A DNA stretch of 64,000 nt from an uncultured Acidobacteriota bacterium (GTDB lineage: Bacteria > Acidobacteriota > Thermoanaerobaculia > Gp7-AA8): the NCBI GenBank assembly GCA_963741955.1, contig CAVUKB010000007.1, positions 832,001-896,000 of the forward strand. Direction: 5' to 3'. Made by a program: the position numbers and the translations under genes. Below, piece by piece: positions 1-17,925 of the stretch (within the stretch, counting starts at the first letter, position 1; each line of letters begins with the position of its first letter). The notes beneath the pieces are model-generated. The model worked only from the letters and a program-made list of their open reading frames with translations. It was not told the DNA's origin and did no database searches.

Positions 1-3000
1 AGCGGCGCGTACTCGTCGGCGTGGGCGAGCGCGATGAGCGCGGGCCCGGCGGACGAAACCGGGCAGACGGTCGCTTTCGCGATCACCGGCAATACGAATC
101 CCGCACTCTTCTCGTCGGGGCCGGCGATCGACGCCGCCGGAAATCTCACCTTCTCCACCGCGGCGAATGCGAATGGCTCCGCGACGGTCACCGTGACGCT
201 CTCGGATAACGGAGGGACTGCCAACGGTGGCGTCGATACGTCCGCCCCGGTCTCCTTCACCATCACCCTCACCCCTGTGAACGACGCACCGGTCGCGGTG
301 GCGGATGCATATGCGACGAACGAGGACACTCCTCTCAACGTCGCTGCCGCAGGTGTTCTGGCGAACGACACGGACGTCGACGGCGACCCACTGAGTGCGA
401 TCCAGGTGTCGGGCCCCGCGAACGGCTCGCTGACGTTGAATCCGGACGGATCGTTCACCTACACACCGAACGCGAACTACAATGGATCCGACTCGTTCAC
501 GTACAAGGCGAACGACGGCTCCGTCGATTCGAACGTCGTCACCGTGTCGATCACCATCAATGCCGTGAACGACCCTCCCGTCGCCGGTGATGATTCGTAC
601 ACCACGGCCGAGGACACTCCGATGGTCGTCGCCGCGCCTGGCGTTCTCGGGAACGACTCCGACGTGGAGAGTGACCCTTTGACCGCCGTGCTGGTCACCA
701 GTCCCGCGCACGGATCACTCACGCTCAACCCGGATGGCTCGTTCAGCTACACTCCGGCCCTGAACTACAACGGACCGGACAGCTTCACGTACGAAGCGAA
801 TGACGGGACGTCCAACTCGAACGTCGCGACGGTCAGCATCACCGTGACTGCGGTGAACGACGCGCCGGTGGCGGTCGATGACTCGTACAGTACCAACGAA
901 GACACTCCGCTGAACGTCCTGGCTGCTTCGGGGGTCCTGGCGAACGACACCGACGTCGATGGAGATCCGCTGACCGCGATCCTCGTCGCGGGTCCGTCGA
1001 ACGGGGGACTGACACTGAATGCGGACGGATCCTTCAGCTACACGCCGAACGCGAACTACAACGGCTCCGACTCGTTCACCTACAAGGCGAACGACGGCTC
1101 GCTCGACTCGAACGTGGCCACCGTGACCATCACGATCAACGCGGTGAACGATCCCCCGGTGGCGACCGGCGACTCGTACACCACGACCGAGGATACTCCG
1201 CTGAACGTCGTGGCTGCGACGGGCGTTCTTGCGAACGACACCGACCCCGAGAGCGATCCGCTCACTGCGGTCCTGGTGTCCGCACCATCGAACGGTACCC
1301 TGACACTCAATGCGGACGGATCGTTCACTTATACTCCGAGCGCGAACTTCAACGGTTCCGATTCATTCACCTACAAAGCGAACGACGGGACGTCCGACTC
1401 GAATGTCGCCACCGTCGCCATCAATGTGACCGCGGTCAACGACCCTCCGGTCGCGAACGGCGACTCGTTCAGTGTGAACGAGGATACCCCTCTTCCGGTG
1501 GCCGCTCCGGGTGTGTTGGCCAACGATACGGACGTCGAAAACGATCCGCTGGTGGCGGTACTCGTTTCCGGGCCGGCCAACGCGGCGTCGTTCACGTTGA
1601 ATGCCGACGGCTCGTTCAGCTATACGCCGAACCCGAATTTCAACGGAGCCGACTCGTTCACGTACAAGGCAAACGACGGGTCACTCGATTCGAACGTGGC
1701 GACGGTGACGATCACCGTCAATCCGGTCGACGACGCGCCGGTCAACAGCGTCCCCGCCGCACAGACGATGGATCAGGGGACCACGCTCACCTTCTCTACC
1801 GGAGGGGGCAACGCGATCTCGATCTCCGATGTGGATGCGGGAGTGGGAGCCATGGCGGTGACCCTCACCGCTTCCGACGGTACACTCTCGCTCTCCGGTA
1901 CGGCCGGACTGAGTTTCACCACCGGCTCGGGGACGAACGATTCCACGATGACCTTCACCGGGACCGTGGCGAACGTCAACGTCGCGCTGGAAGGGATGAC
2001 TTACACCCCCGGCGCGGCGTTCTTCGGATCGACCTCCGTCACCATCACCACCAGTGACCAGGGGAACACCGGCGCGGGCGGGCCGCTCTCGGACAGCGAC
2101 TCGGTTGCGATCACCGTCAACCAGGTGAATCAGCCACCGGTGAACTCCGTCCCTGCAGCGCAGACGATAGACGAAGACACCTCGCTCACGTTCTCGACCG
2201 CCAACTCGAACCTGATCTCCATCAGTGATCCCGACGCGGGATCGGCGAGCGTCCAGGTGACTCTCGGCGTCACGAACGGGACTCTGACTCTGAGCGGAAC
2301 GACCAACCTGACGTTCACGACCGGCACCGGTACCGCCGATGCAACGATGACGTTCACCGGCACGATCGCCGACATCAACAACGCGCTTGCGGGTCTGGTC
2401 TACTCGCCACCGGCGAACTACAACGGAACCGAGACGTTGACCATCCTCACCGACGATCTCGGGAATACCGGTCCGGGTGGAAACAAGACGGACACCGATT
2501 CGGTGACCATTACGATCAATGCAGTCGACGACGCGCCGGTGCTCACGGCACCGGGCTCCGTCACGATCGACGAAGACAACACGCAGACGTTCTCCGGCAC
2601 CATCTCTGTGGCGGACGTCGACGCAGGATCGAATCCGATCGCCGTGTCGCTCTCGGTCAGTCACGGTAACATCGCACTTGCAAGCCTGGTGGGCCTGAGC
2701 ATCACCAGCGGCGCCGACGGAACGTCGGCCGTGGCGTTTACAGGCACACTCACGGACGTCAATAGTGCGCTCAACGGCCTGGTGTACACGCCTGCTGCGA
2801 ACTACAACGGAAGCGACGCTCTTGCGGCCAGTGTGAATGACCAGGGCTACACCGGCTCGGGCGGACCACTCGCCGACAACAGTTCGGTCGCGATCACGAT
2901 CAATGCAGTGAACGATCCGCCGACCGCAACGGCCGCAGGTCCTTACGGCGCCTACCCGGCGATCCCGATCTCATTTGCCGCGGGAACCCTCGGCGGAACG

Positions 3001-5691
3001 GACGTGGACGCGGGAACCACGGTCACCATCGACACGGCGCCTGTGGCCACGACGAACGGCTTCGTCACTCTGAATACCGATGGGAGTTTCACGTTCACAC
3101 CTTCTCACGGGGCCGCTGGTGGAACGGCGTCGTTCCAGTACCGCGTATGTGATGACGGAAGCCCTGCACCCGGACTCTGCAGCAGCGCCGTCACCGTCAC
3201 TTTCAACGTGAGCTCGACCGACGTCTACTTCGTGAAGGCGGCGGGAAGCGGCACGGGGTGCGCGCTCGGGTCCGAATGCACGCTCGCCACGGCGCTCACT
3301 CAGATCGGCGCAGCGACCGGAAAGTCGATCTTCATCGGTGATGCCGCGAACCACAGTACGGCAGTCACTCTCAACACCGGCGGGGCGCTCGTGGGAGAGG
3401 GTGCGACCGCATCGTTCGACACCATCTTCGGAATCAACAGCGGCATCGGTTCTCCGGGAGTCCTGGCGACGCGGCCGGCCACGAACACGACCGCGCCGAC
3501 GATTCAGCAGACGGTGACGCTCGCGGCGAGCTCCCTTCTGCGAGGGGTGACCGTTTCGACGAGCGGCGCGACTGCGGTCTCGGGTGGCGCGATCGCAGGC
3601 CCGGCGGTCAGTGAAGTCACCGCCAACGCGACGACGGCACCGGCCGTCGTGCTGAACGGATCGACGGCCGTCAATATGAGCTTCTCGGGGATCTCGAGCT
3701 CGTCCAGCGGCAGCAGCGGAGTTTCGCTCACCAACGTCACCGGCAACTTTATCGCTCTCGGCGGGACGCTCTCGAACGCGACCGCGGCCGACTTCCTGGT
3801 CAGCGGCGGAACGGCGAACGTGACGTATGCCGGCTCGATCAGCGACGCGACCGGAACGGCGGTGAGCGTGGCGAACGCAACTGGCGGAACGAAGACTTTC
3901 AGCGGCGCAATCGGCAGCGGCTCCGTGTCGCTCACCTCCAATACAGGAGCGACGATCAGCTTCACCGGCGCACTTACGCTGAGTACCAGCATGGCCACTG
4001 CGTTCACTGCGACAGGTGGTGGAATTGTCACCGCGACCAACACCGCCAGCACGATCACGACGACCAGTGGCACCGCAGTGAACGTCAGCAACACCACGAT
4101 CGGTGGCGGAGGCCTCACCTTCCAAAGGATCGATCACAGTGGGAACAACACCACGATTGCACTGACGAATACTGGATCGGGTCCTTTCACCGTCTCCGGT
4201 AGCGGAACGACAGCGGGGAGCGGCGGCACGATTCAGAACACGGTCGGCGCGGATGCAGTGACATTGAACAACACCGGTGGCGTCGTGACGCTGAAGTACA
4301 TGACCATCCAGGACATCACGGCGGCGACCGACGCCGTCGACGGCGAGGACACGCACAGCAACGTCGACGCGATCCAGGGCCAGAACGTCAACGGAGGCCT
4401 GACGCTCGACAACGTCACGATCCAGCGGATCAGCGACAACGGCGTCAACGGCTCCATCGACGGAGCGCCGCCGAGCTCCACCACCTGGAACGGTCTCACG
4501 CTATCGAACTGTACGTTCACGAACACGAACCGGTTCAACACCAGCCATGCCGACGCGAACAACGAAGGGGCGGTGTACATCCAGGGGATCAAGGGAATCG
4601 TCTCGGTGACCGGAAGCAGCTTCTCGAACGCGGGCAACGGTCTGATCCTGAGAACCGCCAGCACCGGGACGCTGGACATGACGGTACGGAGCAACAGTTT
4701 CACCACTCTGTACAAGGAGATCGGCACGCTCAGTGTGGGTAACTTCGGCATCGACGTGATTCAGGAGGGCTCGCTCTCGTCGACGATCCGCATCGGCGAT
4801 ACGGCGACCGAGTCGAACGCAGCGCTCGGAAACGTTTTCACCAACGGCGGCGACCGAGCGTCGATCCGCATCATCTCCGATACCGGGTCGACCGGAGCGA
4901 TGAAGTCGTCGGTCGCGAAGAACACGTTCACGATCACGGATCACACCTCGCCAGGCACCTCGCCCGGCAGCTTTGTTTTCAACTTCCCGCAGGGCGGCGT
5001 CCTGTTGCGGGCGCTGGGCAGCGGCAACTACGAGGCGATCTTCGCGAGCAATGTTCTCGATCAGGTGATGCATGCCGACGGCGGGCTGGGCCAGCTCACA
5101 ATGTTGGCCGAGAAAGGCGACTCCGAGTTCATCGTTCGCAATAACACGTTCCGGCTCCCGTGGGATGCTCCGGTCGAGCTTCGAGCCGACGGTGCTGCCG
5201 GTGGTCAGAACAGCGCGAAAGTACTCTTCACCAACAACACGTACGTGGACGGGACGGTGGGAAGCGCATCCGACGATCTCGGCGCACCGTTCCCATCGCC
5301 GTACACGCCTTCTTACACGCAGGTGCGAAACAACGGTCGTCTCGATCTCACGGTGCAGAACGACGGCCCGTTCGGCTTAAACGATCCCTCCTCCGGATTC
5401 GCGAATTCGTTCCACGCGCAGACAACCAGCTCAGGCGACGTCTTGAATCTGTTCCTGCTGAACACGGCGTCACCGCTCGGGTACCAGCTGAAGGCAGCGA
5501 CCGCTACGACTTACAACCTGTTCCGCAACGGCTCGGGCTCGGGAACCGCGCAGGGCGTTCTTCAGGACAATAACAATACCGGAGGCGGGGGAGCCGACGG
5601 CACCACGCCACCGGTCGCGAATCTGTCCGGTGCTGGAACGGTGACGCTGTCCGGAGTTCCACCACCACTGCCGAACATCACTCAGCCTTGA
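1..5691 (+). CDS. Giant surface adhesin (5'-truncated by window edge): tandem Big_9/cadherin-like Ig repeats plus C-terminal beta-rich, probably beta-helical, region
   Basis: Frame is open from base 1. Repeated VNDAPVA..D.Y.T.EDTPL...GVLAND.D..GSF.YTP..NYNG.DSFTY.ANDG units, then longer VDDAPVNSVP-type units, then Thr/Ser/Gly/Asn-rich beta-strand repeats. Stop TGA at 5689-5691. Confidence 0.9.
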   Translation, partial: SGAYSSAWASAMSAGPADETGQTVAFAITGNTNPALFSSGPAIDAAGNLTFSTAANANGSATVTVTLSDNGGTANGGVDTSAPVSFTITLTPVNDAPVAVADAYATNEDTPLNVAAAGVLANDTDVDGDPLSAIQVSGPANGSLTLNPDGSFTYTPNANYNGSDSFTYKANDGSVDSNVVTVSITINAVNDPPVAGDDSYTTAEDTPMVVAAPGVLGNDSDVESDPLTAVLVTSPAHGSLTLNPDGSFSYTPALNYNGPDSFTYEANDGTSNSNVATVSITVTAVNDAPVAVDDSYSTNEDTPLNVLAASGVLANDTDVDGDPLTAILVAGPSNGGLTLNADGSFSYTPNANYNGSDSFTYKANDGSLDSNVATVTITINAVNDPPVATGDSYTTTEDTPLNVVAATGVLANDTDPESDPLTAVLVSAPSNGTLTLNADGSFTYTPSANFNGSDSFTYKANDGTSDSNVATVAINVTAVNDPPVANGDSFSVNEDTPLPVAAPGVLANDTDVENDPLVAVLVSGPANAASFTLNADGSFSYTPNPNFNGADSFTYKANDGSLDSNVATVTITVNPVDDAPVNSVPAAQTMDQGTTLTFSTGGGNAISISDVDAGVGAMAVTLTASDGTLSLSGTAGLSFTTGSGTNDSTMTFTGTVANVNVALEGMTYTPGAAFFGSTSVTITTSDQGNTGAGGPLSDSDSVAITVNQVNQPPVNSVPAAQTIDEDTSLTFSTANSNLISISDPDAGSASVQVTLGVTNGTLTLSGTTNLTFTTGTGTADATMTFTGTIADINNALAGLVYSPPANYNGTETLTILTDDLGNTGPGGNKTDTDSVTITINAVDDAPVLTAPGSVTIDEDNTQTFSGTISVADVDAGSNPIAVSLSVSHGNIALASLVGLSITSGADGTSAVAFTGTLTDVNSALNGLVYTPAANYNGSDALAASVNDQGYTGSGGPLADNSSVAITINAVNDPPTATAAGPYGAYPAIPISFAAGTLGGTDVDAGTTVTIDTAPVATTNGFVTLNTDGSFTFTPSHGAAGGTASFQYRVCDDGSPAPGLCSSAVTVTFNVSSTDVYFVKAAGSGTGCALGSECTLATALTQIGAATGKSIFIGDAANHSTAVTLNTGGALVGEGATASFDTIFGINSGIGSPGVLATRPATNTTAPTIQQTVTLAASSLLRGVTVSTSGATAVSGGAIAGPAVSEVTANATTAPAVVLNGSTAVNMSFSGISSSSSGSSGVSLTNVTGNFIALGGTLSNATAADFLVSGGTANVTYAGSISDATGTAVSVANATGGTKTFSGAIGSGSVSLTSNTGATISFTGALTLSTSMATAFTATGGGIVTATNTASTITTTSGTAVNVSNTTIGGGGLTFQRIDHSGNNTTIALTNTGSGPFTVSGSGTTAGSGGTIQNTVGADAVTLNNTGGVVTLKYMTIQDITAATDAVDGEDTHSNVDAIQGQNVNGGLTLDNVTIQRISDNGVNGSIDGAPPSSTTWNGLTLSNCTFTNTNRFNTSHADANNEGAVYIQGIKGIVSVTGSSFSNAGNGLILRTASTGTLDMTVRSNSFTTLYKEIGTLSVGNFGIDVIQEGSLSSTIRIGDTATESNAALGNVFTNGGDRASIRIISDTGSTGAMKSSVAKNTFTITDHTSPGTSPGSFVFNFPQGGVLLRALGSGNYEAIFASNVLDQVMHADGGLGQLTMLAEKGDSEFIVRNNTFRLPWDAPVELRADGAAGGQNSAKVLFTNNTYVDGTVGSASDDLGAPFPSPYTPSYTQVRNNGRLDLTVQNDGPFGLNDPSSGFANSFHAQTTSSGDVLNLFLLNTASPLGYQLKAATATTYNLFRNGSGSGTAQGVLQDNNNTGGGGADGTTPPVANLSGAGTVTLSGVPPPLPNITQP
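277..1725 (+). repeat. Five intragenic tandem Big_9 (tandem-95-type) repeats of about 290 bp
   Basis: Units begin VNDAP / VNDPP / VNDAP / VNDPP / VNDPP, with clear nucleotide-level similarity. Confidence 0.85.
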
Positions 5692-5754
5692 CGGGGCGTC
5701 ACCCAGCTGGAGGAGCTCTTGGAAATACACAGTGGACTGAGGAGGAGGTATTAA

Positions 5755-6264
5755 ATGGCAGAACCTTTCCTGAGCGAGATCAGGCTCTTTACCTTTACAT
5801 TCGCGCCGAAAGGATGGGCGCTTTGCGACGGCCAACTGCTGCCGATCAATCAGAATCAGGCGCTCTTCTCATTGCTCGGCACGACGTATGGCGGGAACGG
5901 ACAGACGAATTTCGCACTGCCCGATCTCCGCGGGCGAGTTCCGATCCACACGGGCAGCGGGTTTACACTCGGTGAGCGTGGCGGGGAACAGGCCCACACT
6001 CTGTCGATCTCCGAGCTTCCGACGCACACGCACGTCGCTTCAGGCGTCAATGCGACGGCCACTTCGGCCTCTCCGGCGGGCGCATTCTTCGCGACCTCGC
6101 CGACCGCCCTCGGCTCGGTGTACGGACCTCCCTCCAATTTGGTCGCGACGAATGCCGCGTCAGTCGCGAACGCAGGAGGGTCTCAGGCTCATCTCAACAT
6201 GCAGCCGTACCTGACGTTGTCGTTCGGGATTGCATTGCAGGGGATCTTCCCGAGCCCGAACTAG
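5755..6264 (+). CDS. Phage tail-collar domain protein (MdpB/COG4675-like), paralog 1
   Basis: EPFLSEIRLF..FAPKGWALCDGQLLPI.QNQALFSLLGTTYGG.G..FALPDLRGR, HTH motif, C-terminal HLNMQPYL..F.IALQGIFP. RBS GAGGAGG. Confidence 0.92.
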   Translation: MAEPFLSEIRLFTFTFAPKGWALCDGQLLPINQNQALFSLLGTTYGGNGQTNFALPDLRGRVPIHTGSGFTLGERGGEQAHTLSISELPTHTHVASGVNATATSASPAGAFFATSPTALGSVYGPPSNLVATNAASVANAGGSQAHLNMQPYLTLSFGIALQGIFPSPN

Positions 6265-6279
6265 GAGAAGGAGCAGAAG

Positions 6280-6780
6280 ATGGCACAACCCTATATTGGA
6301 GAGATCCGGATGTTTGCGGGGAACTTCGCTCCGGCCGGATGGATGTTTTGCTCAGGGCAACTCCTCCCGATCAGCGAATACGATGCCCTTTTCAACCTGA
6401 TCGGAACGACCTACGGAGGCGACGGCCAGAGCACGTTCGCGCTCCCCGACCTGCGCGGGCGGATACCGATCCACCAGGGAAACGGGTTCATCATGGGCGA
6501 GACCGGTGGAGCCGAGGAGGTCACGTTGACGGTGCCCCAGATTTCAGCGCATTCGCACCCGTTCCTTGCGGCGAATGCGACGGCCGCGAGCTCGAATCCG
6601 GCCGCGGCTCTCCTGGCAGAGCCGACGGCGAGCATCTACAACGCCGGAACGAATCCAGTCGGCATGTCGCCGCAGGTCGTGAGCTCGACCGGCGGTTCGC
6701 AGCCACACAACAATTTCCAGCCGTATCTCTGCGTGGATTTCATCATCTCCCTCTTCGGGATCTACCCGAGTCCGACCTAG
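6280..6780 (+). CDS. Phage tail-collar domain protein (MdpB-like), paralog 2
   Basis: QPYIGEIRMFAGNFAPAGW..C.GQLLPI..ALF.LIGTTYGGDG.STFALPDLRGR, HSH motif, HNNFQPYL..FIISLFGIYP. Confidence 0.92.
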   Translation: MAQPYIGEIRMFAGNFAPAGWMFCSGQLLPISEYDALFNLIGTTYGGDGQSTFALPDLRGRIPIHQGNGFIMGETGGAEEVTLTVPQISAHSHPFLAANATAASSNPAAALLAEPTASIYNAGTNPVGMSPQVVSSTGGSQPHNNFQPYLCVDFIISLFGIYPSPT

Positions 6781-6833
6781 GACTTCCGTCCCGCTGGCGA
6801 TGACGAGAATGCGCACTGTGCATGAGGAGGTGA

Positions 6834-7364
6834 ATGATGGCTGATCCATTCGTTGCAGAGATCAGGATATTTCCGTTCAACTTCGCCCCGAAGGGATGGG
6901 CGTGGTGTAGCGGGCAGCTCTTGCCCATTTCACAAAACACGGCGTTGTTCTCTCTTCTGGGAACGACGTATGGCGGCGACGGAAAATCCACCTTCGCGTT
7001 GCCGGATCTTCAGGGACGGGCGCCCATGCATCCGGGACAAGGTCCCGGCCTGTCGCTGCACGATCTCGGAGAAGAGGGGGGATCGCAGACGGTCTCTCTT
7101 CTCGAATCGGAGATTCCATCGCACTCGCACACGATGCAGGGATCGAGCGACACGGCCGACCAGAATCTCCCTTCCGGAAATATGGCGGCCATACCCCTCG
7201 GCCGCGGCAACAACCTGTACACGGCGACGAACACGCCCCGCGTGGCGATGAACGACAATGCGATTTCGCCCGCCGGTGGGAACCAGCCGCACAACAACAT
7301 GCAGCCGTTTCTGACGTTGTACTTCTGCATCGCGCTGCAGGGTGTCTTTCCGCCGCGGAGCTGA
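6834..7364 (+). CDS. Phage tail-collar domain protein (MdpB-like), paralog 3
   Basis: DPFVAEIRIFPFNFAPKGWAWC.GQLLPISQNTALFSLLGTTYGGDG, HSH motif, HNNMQPFL..FCIALQGVFP. RBS GAGGAGG. Start is 6834 or 6837. Confidence 0.92.
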   Translation: MMADPFVAEIRIFPFNFAPKGWAWCSGQLLPISQNTALFSLLGTTYGGDGKSTFALPDLQGRAPMHPGQGPGLSLHDLGEEGGSQTVSLLESEIPSHSHTMQGSSDTADQNLPSGNMAAIPLGRGNNLYTATNTPRVAMNDNAISPAGGNQPHNNMQPFLTLYFCIALQGVFPPRS

Positions 7365-7367
7365 TCG

Positions 7368-8075
7368 ATGGATTCGACGGACTACTTTCATTCGGAGGCC
7401 CCGGCCGGGAGGTCGGGGCCGTGGTTGATCGAAAAGATCACCATTCCGGATCGCGAATACGACGCAGCTGCCGACCCGCGGCCGGACTGCTTCAAGTTCC
7501 GCCCGGGGCGGTACACCGTTCTTCGTCGCGAATCCGAACAGTTCATGACCGATCTCTATGATGAGTGGTGGACGCAACGGCCGGGAATCGCCGAGGCGGT
7601 CGCACGAGGGGGGGACGTCCTGGTCACCGGACTGGGGCTGGGCCTGGTCGCCGAAGCGATGTTGCGCCCGAGTGAAAGTCGCGTGAAGAGCATCACGATC
7701 GTGGAGCTCTCACCGGACGTCATCCGTCTCGTCGGACCTTATCTGCTCTCGCGCCATCCCGGCCGGATCGACCTGGTCGAGGCGAGCGCCTTTGCGTGGG
7801 AGCCGCCTGATCGCGCACATTTCTCCGTCGCCTGGCACGACATCTGGCCGAATCCGTACGCGCCGGAAGTGACCGCGGAGATGCGGCGTCTCCAGGAGCG
7901 ATACGGTGATTGGTGCGACTGGCAGGGATTCTGGCCCCGAACCTATTTCGAAGCCGCGGTCAGTAAGCGCCGTCCGTTCGAGACCGTTGCGTCAGGCCTC
8001 GAGCCGGTACAAGCTTCACAGAAGCATGCAGCGGAATCTGACGTTCCACGACAGCATTTCGACCGAAGGAGTTGA
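7368..8075 (+). CDS. Class I SAM-binding protein, spermidine-synthase-like/methyltransferase fold
   Basis: DVLVTGLGLG motif I, ITIVELSPDVI acidic motif II, and WHDIW. Confidence 0.75.
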   Translation: MDSTDYFHSEAPAGRSGPWLIEKITIPDREYDAAADPRPDCFKFRPGRYTVLRRESEQFMTDLYDEWWTQRPGIAEAVARGGDVLVTGLGLGLVAEAMLRPSESRVKSITIVELSPDVIRLVGPYLLSRHPGRIDLVEASAFAWEPPDRAHFSVAWHDIWPNPYAPEVTAEMRRLQERYGDWCDWQGFWPRTYFEAAVSKRRPFETVASGLEPVQASQKHAAESDVPRQHFDRRS

Positions 8076-8113
8076 TCCGGCCCGCCACTGACGCGCCGGA
8101 GGAAGAGCACATC

Positions 8114-8827
8114 ATGTTCGAGATCGATCGCAGACGCTTCGTCATCCTCGGGACCGCCGCCACGGCGGGTCTCGCTCTCCGCTCCAATCTGTTCGCAGAG
8201 AGCTGGCAGAATCCATCGTTCGTTTCAGTCGGATACTGCAGCACCGTCCGACGGGTCCGTACCCGGCGGGCGCCGGGTCCGCGCTTCTTCGAATCCGCCA
8301 CCGGAGTTCCCGGTGGTGATCCGGCATTCTTCCGAGACGGAGCTCGTTTCCGCATCCACGACTTCTGCCGTGCATCCGCGCCCGCTACACCGGAGCGGAT
8401 CGACGTCGACGTTCTTTTCCCGGCCGAAGGTCTCGAGCAGAAAGTCTCGTTTCTCGCGTGGCAGAGTCGCTCGAATGGCGGATCGGAGGGGACAGCGAAT
8501 CCTCTCGCATTCCGGATTCCGGTTCAGTCGACTGGTACGACGGATGTGGTGATGCGCCGCCGGATCGGCGAGATCGACGAGAATGTGACCATACCGTTCA
8601 GCGTCAACGACGGAGCCGCCGCCATCAAACTGAACCACGGTATCTACGCGATTGCACTCCTTCGCGAAGGCGACTCCGCGCCGCGGTGGGGCTCCGTGCA
8701 GGCCGAAGGGGTGAACCCTGCGGAGGACCGGATGTCGATCCGTCTGGTGCGCGATTCTCTCGACGGGCCGGTCCCCGTCACTTTCGACTATCTCCTTCTT
8801 TCCGTATCCTATCCGGAGAATGACTGA
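8114..8827 (+). CDS. Hypothetical exported protein with twin-arginine-like signal
   Basis: MFEIDRRRFVILGTAATAGLALRS after RBS GGAGGAAG. The 3' end overlaps the next start. Confidence 0.6.
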   Translation: MFEIDRRRFVILGTAATAGLALRSNLFAESWQNPSFVSVGYCSTVRRVRTRRAPGPRFFESATGVPGGDPAFFRDGARFRIHDFCRASAPATPERIDVDVLFPAEGLEQKVSFLAWQSRSNGGSEGTANPLAFRIPVQSTGTTDVVMRRRIGEIDENVTIPFSVNDGAAAIKLNHGIYAIALLREGDSAPRWGSVQAEGVNPAEDRMSIRLVRDSLDGPVPVTFDYLLLSVSYPEND

Positions 8828-10772
8828 CCGTTTTCCCGCAGACGGATCGCTGAGCCGATCCCTTTCCCCGAGAGTGCGGGCGCTCTTCGGAACGCTCGCG
8901 ATCCTTCTCGCGCTTGCAGCACCTGACGTGGCGGCATCTGCGGATACGGCCTGGATTCCATGGAGCGACGCCGCGATCGCGCACTCCGCGAAGAGCGGAA
9001 CCCGGCCGCTTCTGATTCTCATCGGTGACGGGAGCTGCATCGAATGCTCGCAGCTTCGAGGGATCGAGGTCGGTGAGGGAGAGCTCGGCCGGCTCTGGCT
9101 CGATGCGGACCTTCATCCCGAGCTCGCACGTGCGTATCTGGTCGCGGCGCGAGTTCTCGGGGCGTCCGGCCCCTCCGCGGTCGTCGTCGTGACTCCGGAC
9201 CTCGAACCGGTCGCGGCGACTTCGGACCTCCAGACTCTTCCGGAGTTTGTCTCCTCATTCTTCTCCCGCTGGAAAGCCGGCCCCACGACGGTCTCGGACC
9301 AGGCGGCACTCGCGATCCGACGCTATCGTCTGAACGGCGGAGCCCTTCCGTTTGAGGATCCGATGACCGCGCGCGGAGTGGCCGTCGAGGCGGAGGCCGC
9401 ACTCTGGGGCGAGGGACGCGAGAACGCCCTGACCGAGCTCCGGAGGCTCACCGCTTCCGCGGTGTACGACCAGCTGGGGGGAGGGTTCCACCGTGCCGCC
9501 AGAGATTCCGAGTGGCGCGTCCCGCGATTCGAGAAACGCCTCGCCGATCAGACCCTCCTGATCGAAACGTATCTCGACGCATCACGCATCACCGACGATC
9601 CGCTCTTCTCTCGCGTCGCCCGCGACTCCGCGGCATTCCTCGTGCGGGAAATGTCCGACGTACGGCGACCGCTCTTCTTCAACGCGCTCGGTCCGAAGAG
9701 CCTCGTCCCCCGCGGAGGACCGGAGATGCTCACCGGCGCGTATTACAGCTGGCAGATCTCGGAGATCACGGCGCTTCTGGGTGACGACGCCCGCCCGTTC
9801 ATCGCGTACTACGGAATGGCTCCCGAAGGGAATGTCCCTGCCGCGTACGACCCGGCCGGAGCGCTCGCGGGACGGAACGTTCTCTTCGTGAGCGGAGCGA
9901 CTTCCGAACCTCCGGCGCTCGACGAATCGAAACAGCACCTCCTCGCGGTCCGGATGCATCGGCCGCCTCCGACCGCAGACGGGAAGGCCGTGACCGAATA
10001 CGAGGCCGCGGCGATCTCCGCACTCGCGAGAAGCTCCATCGCGTTCGACAACGACGACTGGGGCCGTGTCGCGGTCGACGCGCTCCACGCCCTGGACGGA
10101 GTGAATCGCGATTCGAAGAGTCACGCCCTCTACCGCGAGCGCGCGGCGGGCGTCCCTGCGCTCCTCGCCGATTACGTCTATCTGGTTCAGGCGAATCTCG
10201 ACGTGTATGCCTTGACGTTCGATCCCTCGTTTCTGCATCGCGCGGTCGAGCTTCAGAAGGAGTGCGATGCTCTTTTTCTGGACCAGAGCTCGAAGGGCTA
10301 CGCCGCCGCGAAAGCGCTCCCGCCGCCGGTTTCCGGCCTCACCTCTCCCGATCCGATCATGCTCGGCGTCCTTGCGCGGGATCTCGGGAGAATCGGTGCA
10401 ATGACTGCGGATGCCGCGATGGTCGGCCGGGCCACCTCGATCTCCGCAGGAACGACTCTGCCTGCGCAACTGATCGTCGCCGGAGATCGCGGCGACGCGG
10501 CGGTGCGTGCGCTTCTCGAGGCGGCCCGGTCGGACATCCGAGGCAATCTCGAGATTCGCCTATTCGACCGGAAATCGGCCCGTGCGCTCGCAGCTCTGTT
10601 TCCATACGCCGGATTCGTCGCGGAATGTCCCGTCGCGTTCCGGATCGAGAAGTCGAACGGACGCCACGAGTGCAGCCCCTTCGCAACCTTGTGCGACATG
10701 GGGAAGTGCCGCACGCCGACGGCGGATCCCGCCATGATCGCCGCGTGGGTGTCGAAAGGAACATCGAAGTGA
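8820..10772 (+). CDS. YyaL/DUF255 (SPATA20)-like thioredoxin + (alpha/alpha)6-barrel protein, divergent, with probable signal peptide
   Basis: WIPWSD.AI..SAK..RPLLILIG..SCIEC, DAD.HPEL, YDQLGGGFHR..D..W.VP.FEK.L.DQ, GAYYSW, RPPP..D.K, LADY. Hydrophobic N-terminus ending AASA. Confidence 0.8.
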   Translation: MTDRFPADGSLSRSLSPRVRALFGTLAILLALAAPDVAASADTAWIPWSDAAIAHSAKSGTRPLLILIGDGSCIECSQLRGIEVGEGELGRLWLDADLHPELARAYLVAARVLGASGPSAVVVVTPDLEPVAATSDLQTLPEFVSSFFSRWKAGPTTVSDQAALAIRRYRLNGGALPFEDPMTARGVAVEAEAALWGEGRENALTELRRLTASAVYDQLGGGFHRAARDSEWRVPRFEKRLADQTLLIETYLDASRITDDPLFSRVARDSAAFLVREMSDVRRPLFFNALGPKSLVPRGGPEMLTGAYYSWQISEITALLGDDARPFIAYYGMAPEGNVPAAYDPAGALAGRNVLFVSGATSEPPALDESKQHLLAVRMHRPPPTADGKAVTEYEAAAISALARSSIAFDNDDWGRVAVDALHALDGVNRDSKSHALYRERAAGVPALLADYVYLVQANLDVYALTFDPSFLHRAVELQKECDALFLDQSSKGYAAAKALPPPVSGLTSPDPIMLGVLARDLGRIGAMTADAAMVGRATSISAGTTLPAQLIVAGDRGDAAVRALLEAARSDIRGNLEIRLFDRKSARALAALFPYAGFVAECPVAFRIEKSNGRHECSPFATLCDMGKCRTPTADPAMIAAWVSKGTSK

Positions 10773-11263
10773 GTGTCGGAAACCGCGATGCCGCTCACAC
10801 ACGACTCGGACCGGTGTCGAACGACGACACTCCGTTTCTCTTCGCGCTGTACGCTTCGACTCGCGAAGAGGAGCTGTCGGTCGTGCCGTGGACTCCGGAG
10901 CAGAAGAACGCGTTTCTCCGGATGCAGTTTCAGGCGCAGCAGACGTCATACGACGGGAACTACCCCGGAGCGAGTCGCGATCTCATACTGCTCGGCGAGG
11001 AGCCCATCGGCCGCCTCTACGTTCAGCGAACTCCCGACGAGATCCGGGTCATCGACATCGCGCTCCTACCGGCATGGCGCGGACGGGGGATAGGATCGAG
11101 ATACCTCCGGGATCTCTGCCGCGAGTCGGACGCGACGGGGATCCCTCTCGCCATTCACGTCGAGAAACAGAACCGAGCGTTGCAGCTTTACCAGCGCCTG
11201 GGGTTCGCGATCGCCGACGACCGAGGGGTCTACTGGTTCATGAAGCGGATGCCGGCCTCGTGA
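10769..11263 (+). CDS. GNAT family N-acetyltransferase
   Basis: GTG start overlaps the upstream stop (GTGA), with RBS AAGGA. FL..LYASTREEEL..W..EQK.AFL.MQF.AQ, IDIALLP.WRGRGIG, N.AL.LYQRLGF. Confidence 0.88.
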   Translation: MSVGNRDAAHTRLGPVSNDDTPFLFALYASTREEELSVVPWTPEQKNAFLRMQFQAQQTSYDGNYPGASRDLILLGEEPIGRLYVQRTPDEIRVIDIALLPAWRGRGIGSRYLRDLCRESDATGIPLAIHVEKQNRALQLYQRLGFAIADDRGVYWFMKRMPAS

Positions 11264-11342
11264 AACGCGGGCGCAGACTCCTGGGAAGGAGAGCGACGCG
11301 GAGGTGCTTTGTCCCGGCCGCATGATCGCCCGCTCAGGGCGA

Positions 11343-11642
11343 TCAGTTGAAAACCGCTTCGTAGCGGCTTCCGTCGGGCTCGGGCTGGACCGGAACGATG
11401 AACAGAGGCAGCTCTCCGAGCTTGTCGTGGCGCAATGAGTACGTTCCCTGGGCGAGTATCCGCTCGCGCTCGCCGCGGAAGATCAGGGAGAAGGGTGAGC
11501 GGGTCGATTCGCTCCTTCGAAATTGCGGCTGTTCGATCACCTCGACGAGCGTCAATTCGTAACGGTCCGATGGAACTTCGATGACGAAGTTCGAGCCGAC
11601 GTGCTCTCTGAAGTCGCTGGCCGTCGCCTGATCGAGATCCAC
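11343..11642 (-). CDS. DUF6916-like small protein
   Basis: LTLVEV..R.PFSLIFRG...LAQGTY.L.H..LG.L.LFIVPV...YEAVFN. RBS GAGGAGG before GTG. Confidence 0.8.
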   Translation of the reverse strand: MDLDQATASDFREHVGSNFVIEVPSDRYELTLVEVIEQPQFRRSESTRSPFSLIFRGERERILAQGTYSLRHDKLGELPLFIVPVQPEPDGSRYEAVFN

Positions 11643-12265: not shown

Positions 12266-12362
12266 CACACCCTCCCATTCAGATTGTCCGAACGCTGGAG
12301 TCGACGGAAAGTGTAGCAGAGTCGGTAGGATCACTTCAAAGAGGAAGAAATGCGGGCTAGAA

Positions 12363-12582
12363 CCAATGGCCCGAACTTAAGCAAAACCCGCGTGTCAGCC
12401 GGGAGTCTGCGCGAGCTTGCTGAGCAGCGAAGGATCCTCTCTCCGAGGGGCGCCACGGCTCCCGCCGCGGCCGCGCAGATCGCCTTCAGAACGGAACGAG
12501 ACGAAACCTGCGGCAGATGCGCAGTAACTCCGCACATCGGCTCTGTGAACACCCACCGTGCCACTGAAGTTCGGGCCATTGG
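12363..12582. mobile_element. Family A MITE-like structured repeat, copy A1 (complete, with TIRs)
   Basis: Perfect 16-bp TIR CCAATGGCCCGAACTT (12363-12378) / AAGTTCGGGCCATTGG (12567-12582). The interior is shared with 35921-36095 and 54355-54540. Confidence 0.8.
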
Positions 12583-12661
12583 GACCAGAACCCGTCTCGC
12601 GCGGCTGCTTCGATCGAACACTTCCCGCAGCCTGCACCTCGGATCACATATCATCGCCGGA

Positions 12662-13261
12662 ATGAAACGATACGACCGCGCCTACTTCGACCGCTGGTAC
12701 CGCGATCCGGAAACGAGCGTCATCGACGACGATGCGGTCCGCCGGCGTGCCACGATGGTGCTGGCCGTCGCTGAACATCTCCTCCGCCGCCCGGTGCGCT
12801 CCCTTCTCGACATCGGATGCGGGGAGGGAAACTGGGAACCGCATCTGCGCCGGATCCAGCCGGGAATCCGCTATCTGGGGATCGACTCGAGCCGTTACGC
12901 GATCCGGCGCTTCGGTCGCGAGCGGAACCTGAGACTCGGCTCCTTCGCCGATGCATCGACCCGGATCGGAGCTGCGCGGTTCGACGTCCTCGTCTGCTCG
13001 GACGTCCTTCACTATCTGACCGCCCGCGAGATCGATCGCGGTCTCCCTCCTCTGGTGGATCGAGTCGACGGAATCGCTTATCTGTCGGCCTACACCTCCG
13101 ACGACGACACCAGTGGTGATCTCGAAGGCGGCTATCGACGTCCTGCATCCTGGTACCGGGATCGATTCCGGAGGGTCGGTCTCACCGAGCTCGGTTTGCA
13201 GTGCTGGGCCGGTCCTCTGATGCAGGAGAGCGGAGCCGCGCTCGAATACTCCCCGGAGTGA
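12662..13261 (+). CDS. Class I SAM-dependent methyltransferase
   Basis: LLDIGCGEG, YLGIDSS, FDVLVCSDVLHYL. The longer ORF from 12350 runs through repeat A1. Confidence 0.85.
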   Translation: MKRYDRAYFDRWYRDPETSVIDDDAVRRRATMVLAVAEHLLRRPVRSLLDIGCGEGNWEPHLRRIQPGIRYLGIDSSRYAIRRFGRERNLRLGSFADASTRIGAARFDVLVCSDVLHYLTAREIDRGLPPLVDRVDGIAYLSAYTSDDDTSGDLEGGYRRPASWYRDRFRRVGLTELGLQCWAGPLMQESGAALEYSPE

Positions 13262-14651: not shown

Positions 14652-16652
14652 ATGACACACGAGCTGATAGTCGAAGGTGCCGCCGGAGGGCTGACCCCGT
14701 CCAGGGCGCCGGACCTTCTCGATGCGGTGCTCGAGAACACGACCGATCCGACGATCATCGTCGATGGAGAAGGGGTCGTTCTCCGTTTCAATTCCGCGGC
14801 GGTTCAGTGGTCCGGCCGGAGCCTCGGCGCGGCGATCCGTGTGGGGAGAAAGCTGGAGGGTATCGTTGGCGGCCCCCCCCAGGCTTCCGTCTGGACGGAC
14901 CTTTTCGCACGCGCGAAGCGCGGTGCGGTGGTTTTTGCCGAGACCACTCAGGGCATTTCGGGAGAGATCCGCCAATACAGTCTCGCGACGAGGCCTGCGC
15001 CTCCTGGTGTGGTCTTCACGCTTCGCGACATCTCCGATTATCGACGGGCGGAGAGTCACGAGTTTTTCCAGCTCGCTCTCGGCCGGATTTTCGCGCAGAA
15101 CCTTCCGGTGGTGGAAACGCTCGAGCTGGTGCTGGAGGCCTTCTGTGAGTCGATCGGATGGGATTTCGGCGTGGCATGGCTCGTCGATTCCGAGAACCGT
15201 ATTCTGCGTGCGGAGACGGAGTGGTTCGCGCCTGGATTCGTACGGAGCGTCGCGCCGCGGCCGTGGCCGGAATTCGCACTCGGCCATGGTATTCCGGGAA
15301 GAGTCTGGGCGACGCGGGAGAGCATCTGGTATCCCGATCTGCTCGACGAGACGCGGGCGGACCGCTTCTTCCTCTCGTCGCATCTCGGGCTGCGCGCAAC
15401 CGTCGCCTTTCCTCTTCTCGGAACCGAGTCGGTTCTCGGCGTGCTGGAGTTCTTCAGCCGGCGCGTGACACCGGTGGGAAGCCATCTGACGGTCGCACTC
15501 GAGGAAGTCGGGTCGGAGATCGGCCATTACCTGGAGCGAAAAAAGGCGGAGTCGGAACGAACCAAGCTCAATGCGGCTCTCGAACGAAGCACATCCGAGT
15601 GGCAACAGACCTTCGACGCGATCAACTCGCCGATCCTGATCACCGACCGGGAAGGGGTCATCGTTCGCCTCAACAACGCCGCACGGGATCTGGGACGCAT
15701 CGACTCTCCCGACCAGACTCTCGTGGGACGGCACGTCGCGGAGGTCGGCTCCTGTCCGCTCTGGCGGAGCATCGGAGAAGTGATCCGTTCGGTGTCGGAT
15801 TCCGAGCAGGCGGTCAGTCTGAATCAGGGCGACGAGAGCGAGGGGAAGATCTGGGACATCGACGGGAGCTTCAGCCCCGGGCTTGATGATGGCAACGACC
15901 GGGTGATCGTGATTCTGCGGGACCTCACCACCGTGGTACAGCTCCAGGATTCGGTGCGGAAAGGCGAGCAGCTCTGGGCGATGGGAGAGCTTGTGGCAGG
16001 GGTCGCCCACGAAGTCCGCAACCCGCTCTTCGGCATCTCGGCGACACTCGATGCGTTGGAAGTCTCCGTTCCGGTGAAGGACCAGTCGCGGGAGCTGTTC
16101 GACGCCCTCCGTCAATGGATCGACAGGCTCAACGATCTGATGGAGAACCTTCTGGAGTACGGAAAGACGTGGTCGATGAACCTTGCGCGAGGAACTCTCG
16201 ATCCGGTGGTCGACCAGGCGATGGAGCTCTGTGAGCCGCTCGCGAGATCACATTCCATCACGTTCTCGGGCGGTGGTACCTTCGACGGCGAGCTCATTCT
16301 GATCGATCCGGTCCGGCTGGTTCAGGTCTTCCAGAATCTGATCACCAACGCCATTCAGCATTCTCCGGAGGGGACCCGGGTCGACATCGAACGGAGGGTC
16401 TCCCGCGATCGCGATCGGACGTGGCTGGTCTGCGAGGTTCTCGATCGTGGAAACGGTTTCCGGGAGGAGGACCTCAGCCGGATCTTCCAACCCTTCTTCA
16501 CCCGACGCCGTGGTGGTACCGGCCTCGGTCTATCCATCGTCCAGCGAATCGTCGAGGAGCACGGAGGCGTGCTTCATGCGTCGAATCGCGAAGGTGGAGG
16601 CGCGTCATTACGTGTCGCGTTTCCTTCCATGCGCAAAGGCGGCTCATCATGA
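14652..16652 (+). CDS. Cytoplasmic PAS-GAF-PAS sensor histidine kinase
   Basis: H-box VAHEVRNPL, N-box QVFQNLITNA, D.G.GF, IFQPFFT, GGTGLGL. GAF motif GIPGRVW. No TM segment. Confidence 0.92.
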   Translation: MTHELIVEGAAGGLTPSRAPDLLDAVLENTTDPTIIVDGEGVVLRFNSAAVQWSGRSLGAAIRVGRKLEGIVGGPPQASVWTDLFARAKRGAVVFAETTQGISGEIRQYSLATRPAPPGVVFTLRDISDYRRAESHEFFQLALGRIFAQNLPVVETLELVLEAFCESIGWDFGVAWLVDSENRILRAETEWFAPGFVRSVAPRPWPEFALGHGIPGRVWATRESIWYPDLLDETRADRFFLSSHLGLRATVAFPLLGTESVLGVLEFFSRRVTPVGSHLTVALEEVGSEIGHYLERKKAESERTKLNAALERSTSEWQQTFDAINSPILITDREGVIVRLNNAARDLGRIDSPDQTLVGRHVAEVGSCPLWRSIGEVIRSVSDSEQAVSLNQGDESEGKIWDIDGSFSPGLDDGNDRVIVILRDLTTVVQLQDSVRKGEQLWAMGELVAGVAHEVRNPLFGISATLDALEVSVPVKDQSRELFDALRQWIDRLNDLMENLLEYGKTWSMNLARGTLDPVVDQAMELCEPLARSHSITFSGGGTFDGELILIDPVRLVQVFQNLITNAIQHSPEGTRVDIERRVSRDRDRTWLVCEVLDRGNGFREEDLSRIFQPFFTRRRGGTGLGLSIVQRIVEEHGGVLHASNREGGGASLRVAFPSMRKGGSS

Positions 16653-17047
16653 TCGAACAGCGCGCTATGAACGACAACCGGAGAATCCTGATCGTGGACG
16701 ACGAGGCACTGATCGCTCTCGCGATGCGACGCTACTTCGAGGTTCTTGGATACGACGTCGATTGTGCCCAGGAGCTCGAAGAAGCCCAGGCTCTTCTCGC
16801 CAATTACACCTACGATCTGGTCATCGCCGACCTGCGGCTGACCGGCATCGGGGGAGTGGAGGGCCTCCAGATCGTTTCGGATATTCATCAGAAATGTCCG
16901 TCCACACGGGTGATACTGCTGACCGCATACGGGACTCCGGAGATCGAGAAGGAATCGTACAACCGTGGAGCCGATGCTTTTCTGCACAAACCGGCAGCGA
17001 TGATGGAGATTGCGAACATCGCCACCGAACTGATGGGGAGGACGTGA
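16649..17047 (+). CDS. Single-domain response regulator
   Basis: RILIVDDE, IADL, LLTA, FLHKP. ATGA overlap with the kinase (alternative start 16667). Confidence 0.9.
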   Translation: MIEQRAMNDNRRILIVDDEALIALAMRRYFEVLGYDVDCAQELEEAQALLANYTYDLVIADLRLTGIGGVEGLQIVSDIHQKCPSTRVILLTAYGTPEIEKESYNRGADAFLHKPAAMMEIANIATELMGRT

Positions 17048-17925
17048 TGGATCGCTCCCTCCTTGAAACGGTACTCGCTCCCGGAGGTCTGAGGCCTCTG
17101 TTTCAACCGGTCGTGGACGTCTCGGATGCGGCTTCGGTGACGATCCACTACATCGAGTGTCTGATGCGAGGGCCGGTCGGAACCCACCTCGAGCCGGCCA
17201 ATGTCCTGTTCGACTACGTCCGGCTGAAGCGGGAAGAGAGTCTGGTCGACCGCGCCTGCGTCGCTGCAGCTTTGCACGGTCTGGCCCGGCTCGATGATTC
17301 CGTTCGGATGAGTGTGAACGTCCACGCCTCGACGCTCGGCCGGGACCACGGATTCGTGGGGTACTTCCAGGAAGTGGCCGAAGCGGCCCGGATCGACATC
17401 GAGCGGGTGACGCTGGAGATCGTGGAACATGCACCACCGTGGGATGGTGTGAGCTTCCTCGCCGCGATTGCGGATCTCCGGTCGCTCGGAGTGGCCATCG
17501 CGCTCGACGACGTCGGACTGGGGCTCTCGAACTACAAGATGATTCTCGACGTCTGCCCCGATTATCTGAAGGTGGACCGGTACTTCGTTTCTTCGTGCGA
17601 CGAAGATCCGAAACGCCGCGCAGTGATTCGCTCCATCCGCCAGCTCGGATCCGAGTTCGGTGCGCGGATCGTGGCCGAAGGGGTGGAGCGGCGGGAAGAG
17701 CTCGAGACGCTCCGCGGGCTCGGAGTCAGTCTGGTTCAGGGGTTCCTCTTCGCGGAGCCGTCGACCCATCCCGAAATTCCGAGGAGCGCTCACGAGCTGC
17801 TTGTACGGGAGGAAGAGGGAGGACACGGGAACGTGAGCCTCGGCGCCATCCGGTCGAAGAAAAAATCAGATCGCCGCTCCCGGGCGCTTCCTTCCTCAGA
17901 CGTCCTTGGGCTTCGTGACCGGTGA
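17047..17925 (+). CDS. Stand-alone EAL-domain c-di-GMP phosphodiesterase
   Basis: FQPVV, ECL (EAL variant), SVNV, LEIVE, ALDDVG.G, LKVD, AEGVE, QGFLF. Confidence 0.88.
   Translation: MDRSLLETVLAPGGLRPLFQPVVDVSDAASVTIHYIECLMRGPVGTHLEPANVLFDYVRLKREESLVDRACVAAALHGLARLDDSVRMSVNVHASTLGRDHGFVGYFQEVAEAARIDIERVTLEIVEHAPPWDGVSFLAAIADLRSLGVAIALDDVGLGLSNYKMILDVCPDYLKVDRYFVSSCDEDPKRRAVIRSIRQLGSEFGARIVAEGVERREELETLRGLGVSLVQGFLFAEPSTHPEIPRSAHELLVREEEGGHGNVSLGAIRSKKKSDRRSRALPSSDVLGLRDR

Follow-up and report, generated by a model that had tools for sequence, protein, structure and literature searches.

In the genome of an uncultured Acidobacteriota bacterium (5.4 Mb, 99.1% complete), three consecutive genes for proteins with the phage tail collar domain stand in fixed order within a conserved cassette in a non-phage setting, together with genes for a GNAT acetyltransferase, a DUF6916 protein, a protein with a twin-arginine translocation (Tat) signal and a giant repeat protein. 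The locus opens the 64,000-nucleotide stretch of DNA analysed here, hereafter the window (contig CAVUKB010000007.1, positions 832,001 to 896,000; G000:C7:832001-896000). The locus is a single copy of a cassette that is widespread among cells. In the reading that we prefer, and to which we give roughly even chances, its three collar proteins would assemble in the cytoplasm into a heterotrimeric knob, leave it by hitchhiking through the Tat pathway and work with the giant protein.

Conservation of the cassette across phyla

An initial annotation, made from the sequence of the window, had suggested that the giant protein, the three collars, GNAT and DUF6916 belong together, and both profile hidden Markov model searches and gene-neighbourhood comparisons show this linkage to recur, among relatives and across phyla. 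Sixty-one relatives were scanned for Collar and DUF6916, which gave a DUF6916 match in 23 and a Collar match in 24; by reading of the place tables, 21 of the 61 (including the unpublished G022) have three clustered strong Collar matches, and 18 of these 21 have DUF6916 no more than 10 kb away on the same contig. Seventeen of the 18 loci that were fetched carry collars 1-2-3 in order plus GNAT and DUF6916, the eighteenth (L048) showing three short collar ORFs (open reading frames) only. The content between collar 3 and GNAT varies among relatives, and 7.4-8.6 kb separate these two genes in L042:5071-12499 and L043:9543-18104. In the genome of the window itself there are three Collar matches and one DUF6916 match in total, all at the locus and 4.3 kb apart.

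Beyond these relatives, a collection with one genome per species was scanned with the collar-2 alignment as anchor, and at least 595 collar-2 relatives were confirmed from 600 candidate stretches. The best 80 of these (collar 2 63-75% identical) come, by their record titles, from Acidobacteriota, Chloroflexota, Alpha-, Beta- and Gammaproteobacteria, Verrucomicrobiota, Bacteroidota, Actinomycetota and Planctomycetota. The order 1-2-3 is kept in 74 of the 80 loci, GNAT is present in 71, DUF6916 in 68, GNAT and DUF6916 together in 66, and a relative of the C-terminal region of the giant protein in 58. The cassette is also carried on large plasmids of cultured strains, where it is annotated only as three copies of 'tail fiber protein' and an acetyltransferase; cultured carriers include Ruegeria sp. 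TM1040 (TM1040_RS01845-RS01880), Deinococcus ficus, Rhizobium bangladeshense, Flavobacterium phragmitis, Chiayiivirga flava and Mesorhizobium strains. Among 2.9 million viral contigs there were 23 collar relatives, at most 59% identical, of which eight were multi-collar clusters (one with GNAT) and 15 were single collars. Further arrangements of collar genes were seen in passing: the viral-collection contig L144 (5.4 kb) carries nine in tandem and L142 six, with no other cassette gene in view, and L069, L128 and L135 each hold two collar triplets side by side.

A literature search, which did not cover supplementary files, returned no paper describing the cassette, none on DUF6916, none pairing a tail collar with twin-arginine and, among the papers listed, none relevant on COG4675, MdpB or PF07484 or on a tail collar domain with an acetyltransferase or a heterotrimer.

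The collar triplet as a candidate mixed knob

Collars 1, 2 and 3 pass the gathering cut-off of the Pfam Collar family (PF07484; 24 bits) with 102.7, 104.5 and 96.9 bits, respectively, and collar 3 also matches Gp10_C (E-value 7.2e-05), under the cut-off of that family. The chains begin at the Collar domain itself (residues 7-9), with no fibre shaft and, as is also the case for the GNAT and DUF6916 proteins, with no signal peptide. After the collar they carry the head motif HxH, which reads HTH in collar 1 and HSH in collars 2 and 3, and one HxH is kept in all orthologues examined (98, 100 and 98 for collars 1, 2 and 3). In the fibre tip of phage T4 the HxH has a metal-binding role. The variable part of the collars is the stretch after the HxH, and each paralogue has its own N-terminus (MAEPF in 82 of 98 for collar 1, MAQPY in 83 of 100 for collar 2 and MADPF in 62 of 98 for collar 3). 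Over the same 29 loci the mean column identity of the collars is 71-76% vs 23% for ORF251, the Tat-signal protein. Among solved structures collar 2 matches a long tail fibre (8kec, 3.9e-08) and T4 gp12 (1ocy, 6.3e-05), the gp12 chains 1ocy, 1pdi and 5iv5 lying at E 6e-5 to 2e-4.

In a tree of 339 collar sequences the first, second and third genes form position-specific clades (support 0.97, 0.98 and 0.96) that contain 89/92, 86/92 and 89/92 of the respective genes, so that the collar triplication came before the spread of the cassette. If three collar products normally share one particle, single chains with three modules would be expected, and such chains do occur: collar 1 has 2041 longer relatives (297 amino acids or more), and in the best 120 of these 43 have three collar modules per chain and 26 have two; the order is 2-1-3 in 21 of the 43, and the other 51 of the 120 were over-split by the module parser. 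A single heterotrimeric knob made from the three chains is a well supported prediction from these patterns, and the cassette probably builds an exported three-chain binding knob. A complex prediction of collars 1, 2 and 3 with mature ORF251 (score 0.23; mark 0.32) speaks neither for nor against binding.

The collars of the window share with the tips of T4 gp12 and gp37 the succession of a collar and an HxH head. Unlike these tips they have no shaft and are three distinct chains; their genes are cellular, lie away from any phage context and are accompanied by those for GNAT, DUF6916, a Tat-signal protein and the giant protein. In the virophage DSLV2, to which we liken the collar triplet by description and which we count in favour of a heterotrimer, the products of three consecutive collar-domain genes co-purify 1:1:1 and bind lipopolysaccharide, and in the model of that paper the tripartite tail is attached to the viral capsid; the parts of the article available to us describe no GNAT, DUF6916, Tat partner or giant protein (J Virol 2025, PMC12724248). 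Cellular, non-phage operons with a collar protein are known from Rhizobium leguminosarum and Microcystis, and are compared here by the descriptions in the papers. RhiB of the R. leguminosarum RhiABC carries a Collar domain and RhiA and RhiC have no Pfam domain, so that RhiABC, unlike the triplet of the window, is by Pfam not a set of three collar paralogues in the account available (PMC13133039). Microcystis MrpA and MrpB are described as resembling RhiA and RhiB (PMC3328848), and the third microcystin-related protein, MrpC, as an extracellular pilin (PMC12397347). On a Rhizobium plasmid the cassette described here stands as a separate locus.

Candidate export route and helper genes

From its likely start at 8114, ORF251 reads MFEIDRRRFVILG..., and its N-terminus DRRRFVILGTAATAGLAL has the form of a Tat substrate, a twin-arginine motif followed by a hydrophobic stretch, in which the RR is invariant and the F nearly invariant in 32 relatives. 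TatC is encoded in the genome of the window. The structural model of ORF251 (predicted local distance difference test, pLDDT, 82.9) shows a mature part of two beta-sandwich domains, with no convincing match among PDB structures (template modelling, TM, score at most 0.31). The family occurs in 34 of 99 cassette loci, mostly directly after collar 3. Among the 80 cross-phyla loci, 21 have a member of the ORF251 family, 22 have a DUF6916 paralogue with a Tat leader and none has both, which makes the Tat-signal protein, already named by the initial annotation, a recurrent member of the cassette in one type or the other (43 of the 80 loci; a looser regular-expression count gives 57/80, false positives included). 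In Escherichia coli the Tat hitchhikers HybO/HybC and DmsA/DmsB pair a signal-less folded subunit with a partner that is the sole carrier of a twin-arginine signal. The cassette resembles them in that signal-less collars are encoded beside a Tat-signal protein (in one locus, L281, two of the three collars carry signals themselves), and would differ in its putative cargo, a fibre-tip knob in place of a redox enzyme.

The two small proteins that accompany the collars are recognised by Pfam above its cut-offs. GNAT scores 40.1 bits (PF00583 cut-off 20.7 bits), and its best NCBIfam match is RimI (TIGR01575) at 38.4 bits, under the cut-off of 86.4 bits; its PDB matches include N-terminal acetyltransferases and RimI (E 1e-4 to 3e-3). 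By these scores it is not a RimI orthologue, and it may act like an N-terminal acetyltransferase. DUF6916 scores 102 bits (PF21880 cut-off 27 bits) and is modelled as a six-stranded beta-barrel (pLDDT 92.8), for which no Foldseek match was found at E 0.001 or better; the nearest solved folds are the MrkH/YcgR N-terminal PilZN-like barrels, at a background level of Z 7.0-8.1. A search of longer proteins gave no fused form of DUF6916 with an E-value of 1e-8 or lower, a negative of little weight. In six loci DUF6916 stands at the end of a long open frame; these frames contain no other Pfam domain and are probably high-GC artefacts.

Fused and leader-bearing relatives of the collars are informative on where the knob would act. 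Many of the three-module chains start with a leader of the Sec type, which stops immediately ahead of QPYVGEIR, and others end in PEP-CTERM (PF07589). Three chains of this kind (P0029, P0056 and P0113) combine a leader and short heads with a dockerin-like stretch rich in aspartate and a PEP-CTERM end, and in them the last strand of the module precedes the first collar, as if permuted. One fused form for which the surroundings could be read (L171) came from a scan of metagenomes, a 594-amino-acid chain with a Sec leader beside a neighbour of 2475 amino acids and with no GNAT, DUF6916 or Tat ORF; the other long loci were separate triplets. All three collars of L246 bear RR leaders of their own. 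A Bacteroidota sample was also taken, in which 61 of 401 genomes had a match and from which 40 regions were retrieved. In L281 (8988-10986) collars 3 and 1 bear consensus Tat signals and collar 2 lacks one, with no GNAT or DUF6916 within 9 kb of the triplet; L282, L292 and L295, akin to L281, have collars with their own RR leaders, and L312, L319 and L320 have single Sec-signal collars that stand alone.

Forty-nine loci were sorted by criteria set beforehand (200 bits or more for a module, 35 amino acids or more for a leader). Where all three modules reached 200 bits and had no leader (n=12), GNAT was present in 11 and DUF6916 in 10, and where any module had a leader of at least 35 amino acids (n=11) neither was present in any locus. 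Both classes agree with the view that signal-less chains are served by GNAT, DUF6916 and the Tat partner. An action of the predicted knob outside the cytoplasm is well supported, and separate export of the collars is favoured as the export step because Tat or Sec leaders sit on collar relatives.

The giant protein, local additions and genomic setting

The initial annotation gave an adhesin of more than 1890 amino acids, which is right for the part inside the window; the ORF, however, extends upstream, with a likely start ~2675 nucleotides before the window that brings the whole protein to ~2788 amino acids. The upstream sequence (L011) places a signal-peptide-like N-terminus at this start. The protein matches Cadherin_4 (2.5e-138), Big_9 (7.8e-131) and Cadherin_5 (4.1e-119), and for the ~840 amino acids after the repeats no Pfam or PDB sequence match was found. 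Look-alikes of this C-terminal region in the ESM Atlas carry Beta_helix (PF13229; score 0.94), which is a lead only, and the region probably forms a beta-helix. Relatives of residues ~230-570 of the last 900 amino acids adjoin collars in the 58 of 80 loci counted above, and even between distant lineages one segment of the C-terminal region keeps an identity of 45-56%, a degree of conservation that is unusual for proteins of such type. The place and strand of the giant gene vary between loci, in which it is found upstream, downstream or divergent. In its signal peptide, its cadherin-like and Big_9 repeats and its probable beta-helix the protein resembles giant repeat adhesins, from which it differs in being tied to a fibre-tip triplet and in having a C-terminal segment conserved across phyla. 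Just upstream of the giant gene lies an ORF of 386 amino acids with a signal peptide (L011:2006-3166, + strand; G000:C7:828006-829166), the mature part of which is paralogous to the initial ~270 residues of the giant protein and has motifs in common with them; no Pfam family was found for it. In a Sphingobacteriales locus (L119:6716-13981) the giant neighbour has 2421 amino acids and a C-terminus that resembles, by eye, a type IX secretion domain.

Two genes that the initial annotation had counted as dedicated parts, one as a methyltransferase modifier and the other as a YyaL-like maturation protein, did not hold up as such. ORF235 has no Pfam family, and its only NCBIfam match is to a polyamine aminopropyltransferase at 14.7 bits against a cut-off of 472; it reaches no family cut-off for class I S-adenosylmethionine methyltransferases or spermidine synthases. 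Its ESM Atlas neighbours (TM 0.73, ~200 amino acids), named methyltransferase or spermidine synthase and 62-93% viral, provide a lead only. It was found in 2 of the 99 cassette loci, each time directly after collar 3, and in none of the 80 cross-phyla loci. Within the phylum of the window 4 of 401 genomes have it, and the only close homologue (G051, 51% identity) also directly follows collar 3. Relatives were found in 13 phage records, and the two neighbourhoods inspected are early or replication regions, not fibre modules. ORF650 matches a Thioredox_DsbH-domain protein (PDB 7tkv, 5.7e-32) over residues 200-490, and its N-terminal domain gives only Thioredoxin_7 (E 0.16), with a CIEC near the N-terminus by eye; it occurs in 3 of the 99 loci, all in the window's own family, and in none of the 80, and relatives lie within ~8 kb of the triplet in L054 and L055. 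On this distribution ORF235 and ORF650 are local additions and not dedicated cassette parts.

Every gene listed by the initial annotation is present at the locus (Table 1), and the tight, co-oriented run that it described was confirmed. The gaps from the giant gene through ORF235 are 63, 15, 53-56 and 3 nucleotides, ORF235 and ORF251 overlap by 4 nucleotides and ORF251 and ORF650 by 8, and the GTG at 10769 of GNAT overlaps the ORF650 stop codon as GTGA; the GNAT frame is that of the ORF at 10262, which corrects the gene list. The GNAT and DUF6916 genes are convergent, with 79 nucleotides between them.

Table 1. Features of the collar locus; positions are those of the window
Feature	Position	Strand	Evidence and remarks
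Giant protein ORF, 5' open	1-5691	+	C-terminal 1896 amino acids inside the window
Collar 1 (169 amino acids)	5755-6264	+	PF07484 E 9.8e-30
Collar 2 (166 amino acids)	6280-6780	+	PF07484 E 2.8e-30
Collar 3 (175 amino acids)	6837-7364, alternative ATG 6834	+	PF07484 E 6.5e-28
ORF235, rare accessory, spermidine-synthase/class I methyltransferase-like fold	7368-8075	+	weak NCBIfam, ESM Atlas
ORF251, Tat-signal protein	8072-8827, likely start 8114	+	twin-arginine leader
ORF650, exported YyaL/Thioredox_DsbH-like, lineage-specific accessory	8820-10772	+	PDB 7tkv 5.7e-32
GNAT acetyltransferase	10769-11263, start GTG 10769 or GTG 10814	+	PF00583 E 4.9e-10
DUF6916 protein (99 amino acids)	11343-11642	-	PF21880 E 1.9e-29; convergent on GNAT

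Phage genes, and genes of extracellular contractile injection systems, were looked for on both sides of the locus, and in agreement with the non-phage setting that the initial annotation had described, no phage family was found by Pfam among 20 flanking ORFs (10 in the 17 kb upstream and 10 in the 15 kb downstream), and none of these encodes a capsid, sheath, tube, baseplate or integrase. They encode instead a molybdo-enzyme, methyltransferases, MtrC-like multihaem cytochromes, an acetyl-CoA hydrolase, a histidine kinase, an EAL protein and arginine-synthesis enzymes. Two adjoining multihaem cytochromes lie ~10 kb upstream (L009:6914-10110; G000:C7:818914-822110), resembling MtrC/MtrF (E 4e-54) with paired CXXCH motifs, and directly downstream of the cassette are a class I methyltransferase (12350-13261), a PAS-GAF histidine kinase (14652-16652) and an EAL-domain protein (16447-17925).

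Proposed mechanism and alternatives

In the explanation that we prefer, collars 1, 2 and 3 would assemble 1:1:1 into one metal-holding heterotrimeric knob. Because its chains have no signals, the knob would fold in the cytoplasm and leave through the Tat pathway, riding on a Tat-signal protein (ORF251 here, Tat-DUF6916 in other lineages) with DUF6916 as a knob-binding escort. Outside the cytoplasm a conserved collar face would dock on the monomeric giant protein and the variable head loops would bind sugar or the surface of another cell. GNAT would acetylate the conserved Met-Ala N-termini of the collars before export. Our confidence in these steps declines from assembly through Tat export and docking to acetylation: Tat hitchhiking on ORF251 or Tat-DUF6916, with DUF6916 as escort, is plausible, and both the docking on the giant protein, for which adjacency is the evidence, and the acetylation of the N-termini by GNAT are speculative. 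A more specific version, which we find possible but doubtful, is that the cassette would constitute a new surface-recognition device, in which an N-terminally capped, phage-derived knob is served by a dedicated DUF6916/ORF251 Tat adaptor and docks 1:1 on the beta-helix giant, the broken three-fold symmetry of the knob allowing such docking on a monomeric partner; in this version lineages with fused chains or leaders of their own could drop GNAT, DUF6916 and the carrier.

Several results weigh against the preferred explanation. A recognised Tat partner is missing from the remainder of the 80 loci, and in a profile comparison ORF251 and DUF6916 show no detectable kinship (hhalign probability 1.5%), for which reason the idea that they are two forms of one carrier depends on their mutual exclusion alone. 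In the third class of the 49 sorted loci, with weaker modules and no long leader (n=26), GNAT was found in 2 loci and DUF6916 in a single one, and neither accompanies the strong triplet of L283; because of this class and L283 signal-less collars can exist without helpers, and the helper rule is, on these counts, not general for all collar proteins. The contact with the giant protein follows from adjacency only, and neither a Pfam family of the giant protein nor a fused DUF6916 appears in either list of the longer collar relatives. The GNAT of the window matches RimI and N-terminal acetyltransferases weakly, under the family cut-offs, and the best fold match of DUF6916 (Z 8.1) is at chance level and points to no function. 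Lastly, the locus counts are not independent, since the loci are related among themselves and entered the samples through their similarity to a query.

The alternative that we take most seriously, although we judge it unlikely, keeps the exported knob and detaches it from the giant protein: the collars would be a free-standing lectin or matrix protein, with a possible part in cross-linking polysaccharide of the same cell or in attachment to other cells, and the two would be co-located as surface functions that move together by gene transfer. The variable position and strand of the giant gene suit this idea, as do the 22 of 80 loci that have no relative of the giant beta-helix, the solitary Sec-signal collars of L312, L319 and L320, and the PEP-CTERM anchor of some three-module chains, which would need no stalk. 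It has to contend with the giant gene adjoining the triplet, by homology, in 58 of 80 loci and being kept even beside the fused form in L171, and with the 45-56% identity of its C-terminal segment in distant lineages. The proposal of the initial annotation, in which the whole run including ORF235 and ORF650 is one dedicated appendage-maturation operon, we consider improbable; tight stop/start coupling through all nine genes, the G051 homologue of ORF235 directly after collar 3 and the ORF650 relatives ~8 kb or less from the triplet in L054 and L055 speak for it, but both genes are absent from all 80 loci across phyla, ORF235 is found in only 4 of 401 genomes of the phylum, and its phage relatives lie in early or replication regions, not beside fibre genes.

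Still less credence is due to a purely intracellular role, in which the collars would be an anti-phage decoy or sensor, or with GNAT and DUF6916 something like a toxin-antitoxin system, and the exported neighbours would be unrelated. The lack of signal peptides on collars 1-3, GNAT and DUF6916, and the many signal-less collar loci with no Tat partner, would be explained in this way; the Sec, Tat or PEP-CTERM signals of relatives and the Tat-signal partner in at least 43 of 80 loci would not, and the absence of GNAT and DUF6916 beside all 11 leader-bearing collar loci fits export help better than a separate toxin pair. That the locus is what remains of a prophage, a tailocin or a contractile injection system is very improbable: public records do name the collars 'tail fiber protein' and 23 relatives come from viral contigs, but those are at most 59% identical and compare with at least 595 relatives in species genomes, the 20 flanking ORFs hold no phage family, and from phylum to phylum both the gene content and the gene order stay fixed.

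The collar triplet family, annotated as 'tail fiber protein' or 'microcystin-dependent protein', is found at no fewer than 595 places in many phyla, and the cassette with its proposed export route yields concrete, testable hypotheses for it. If the preferred explanation is true, cells without any tail would have reused the receptor-binding tip of a phage, a non-redox cargo would be added to Tat hitchhiking, and DUF6916 would gain a role.

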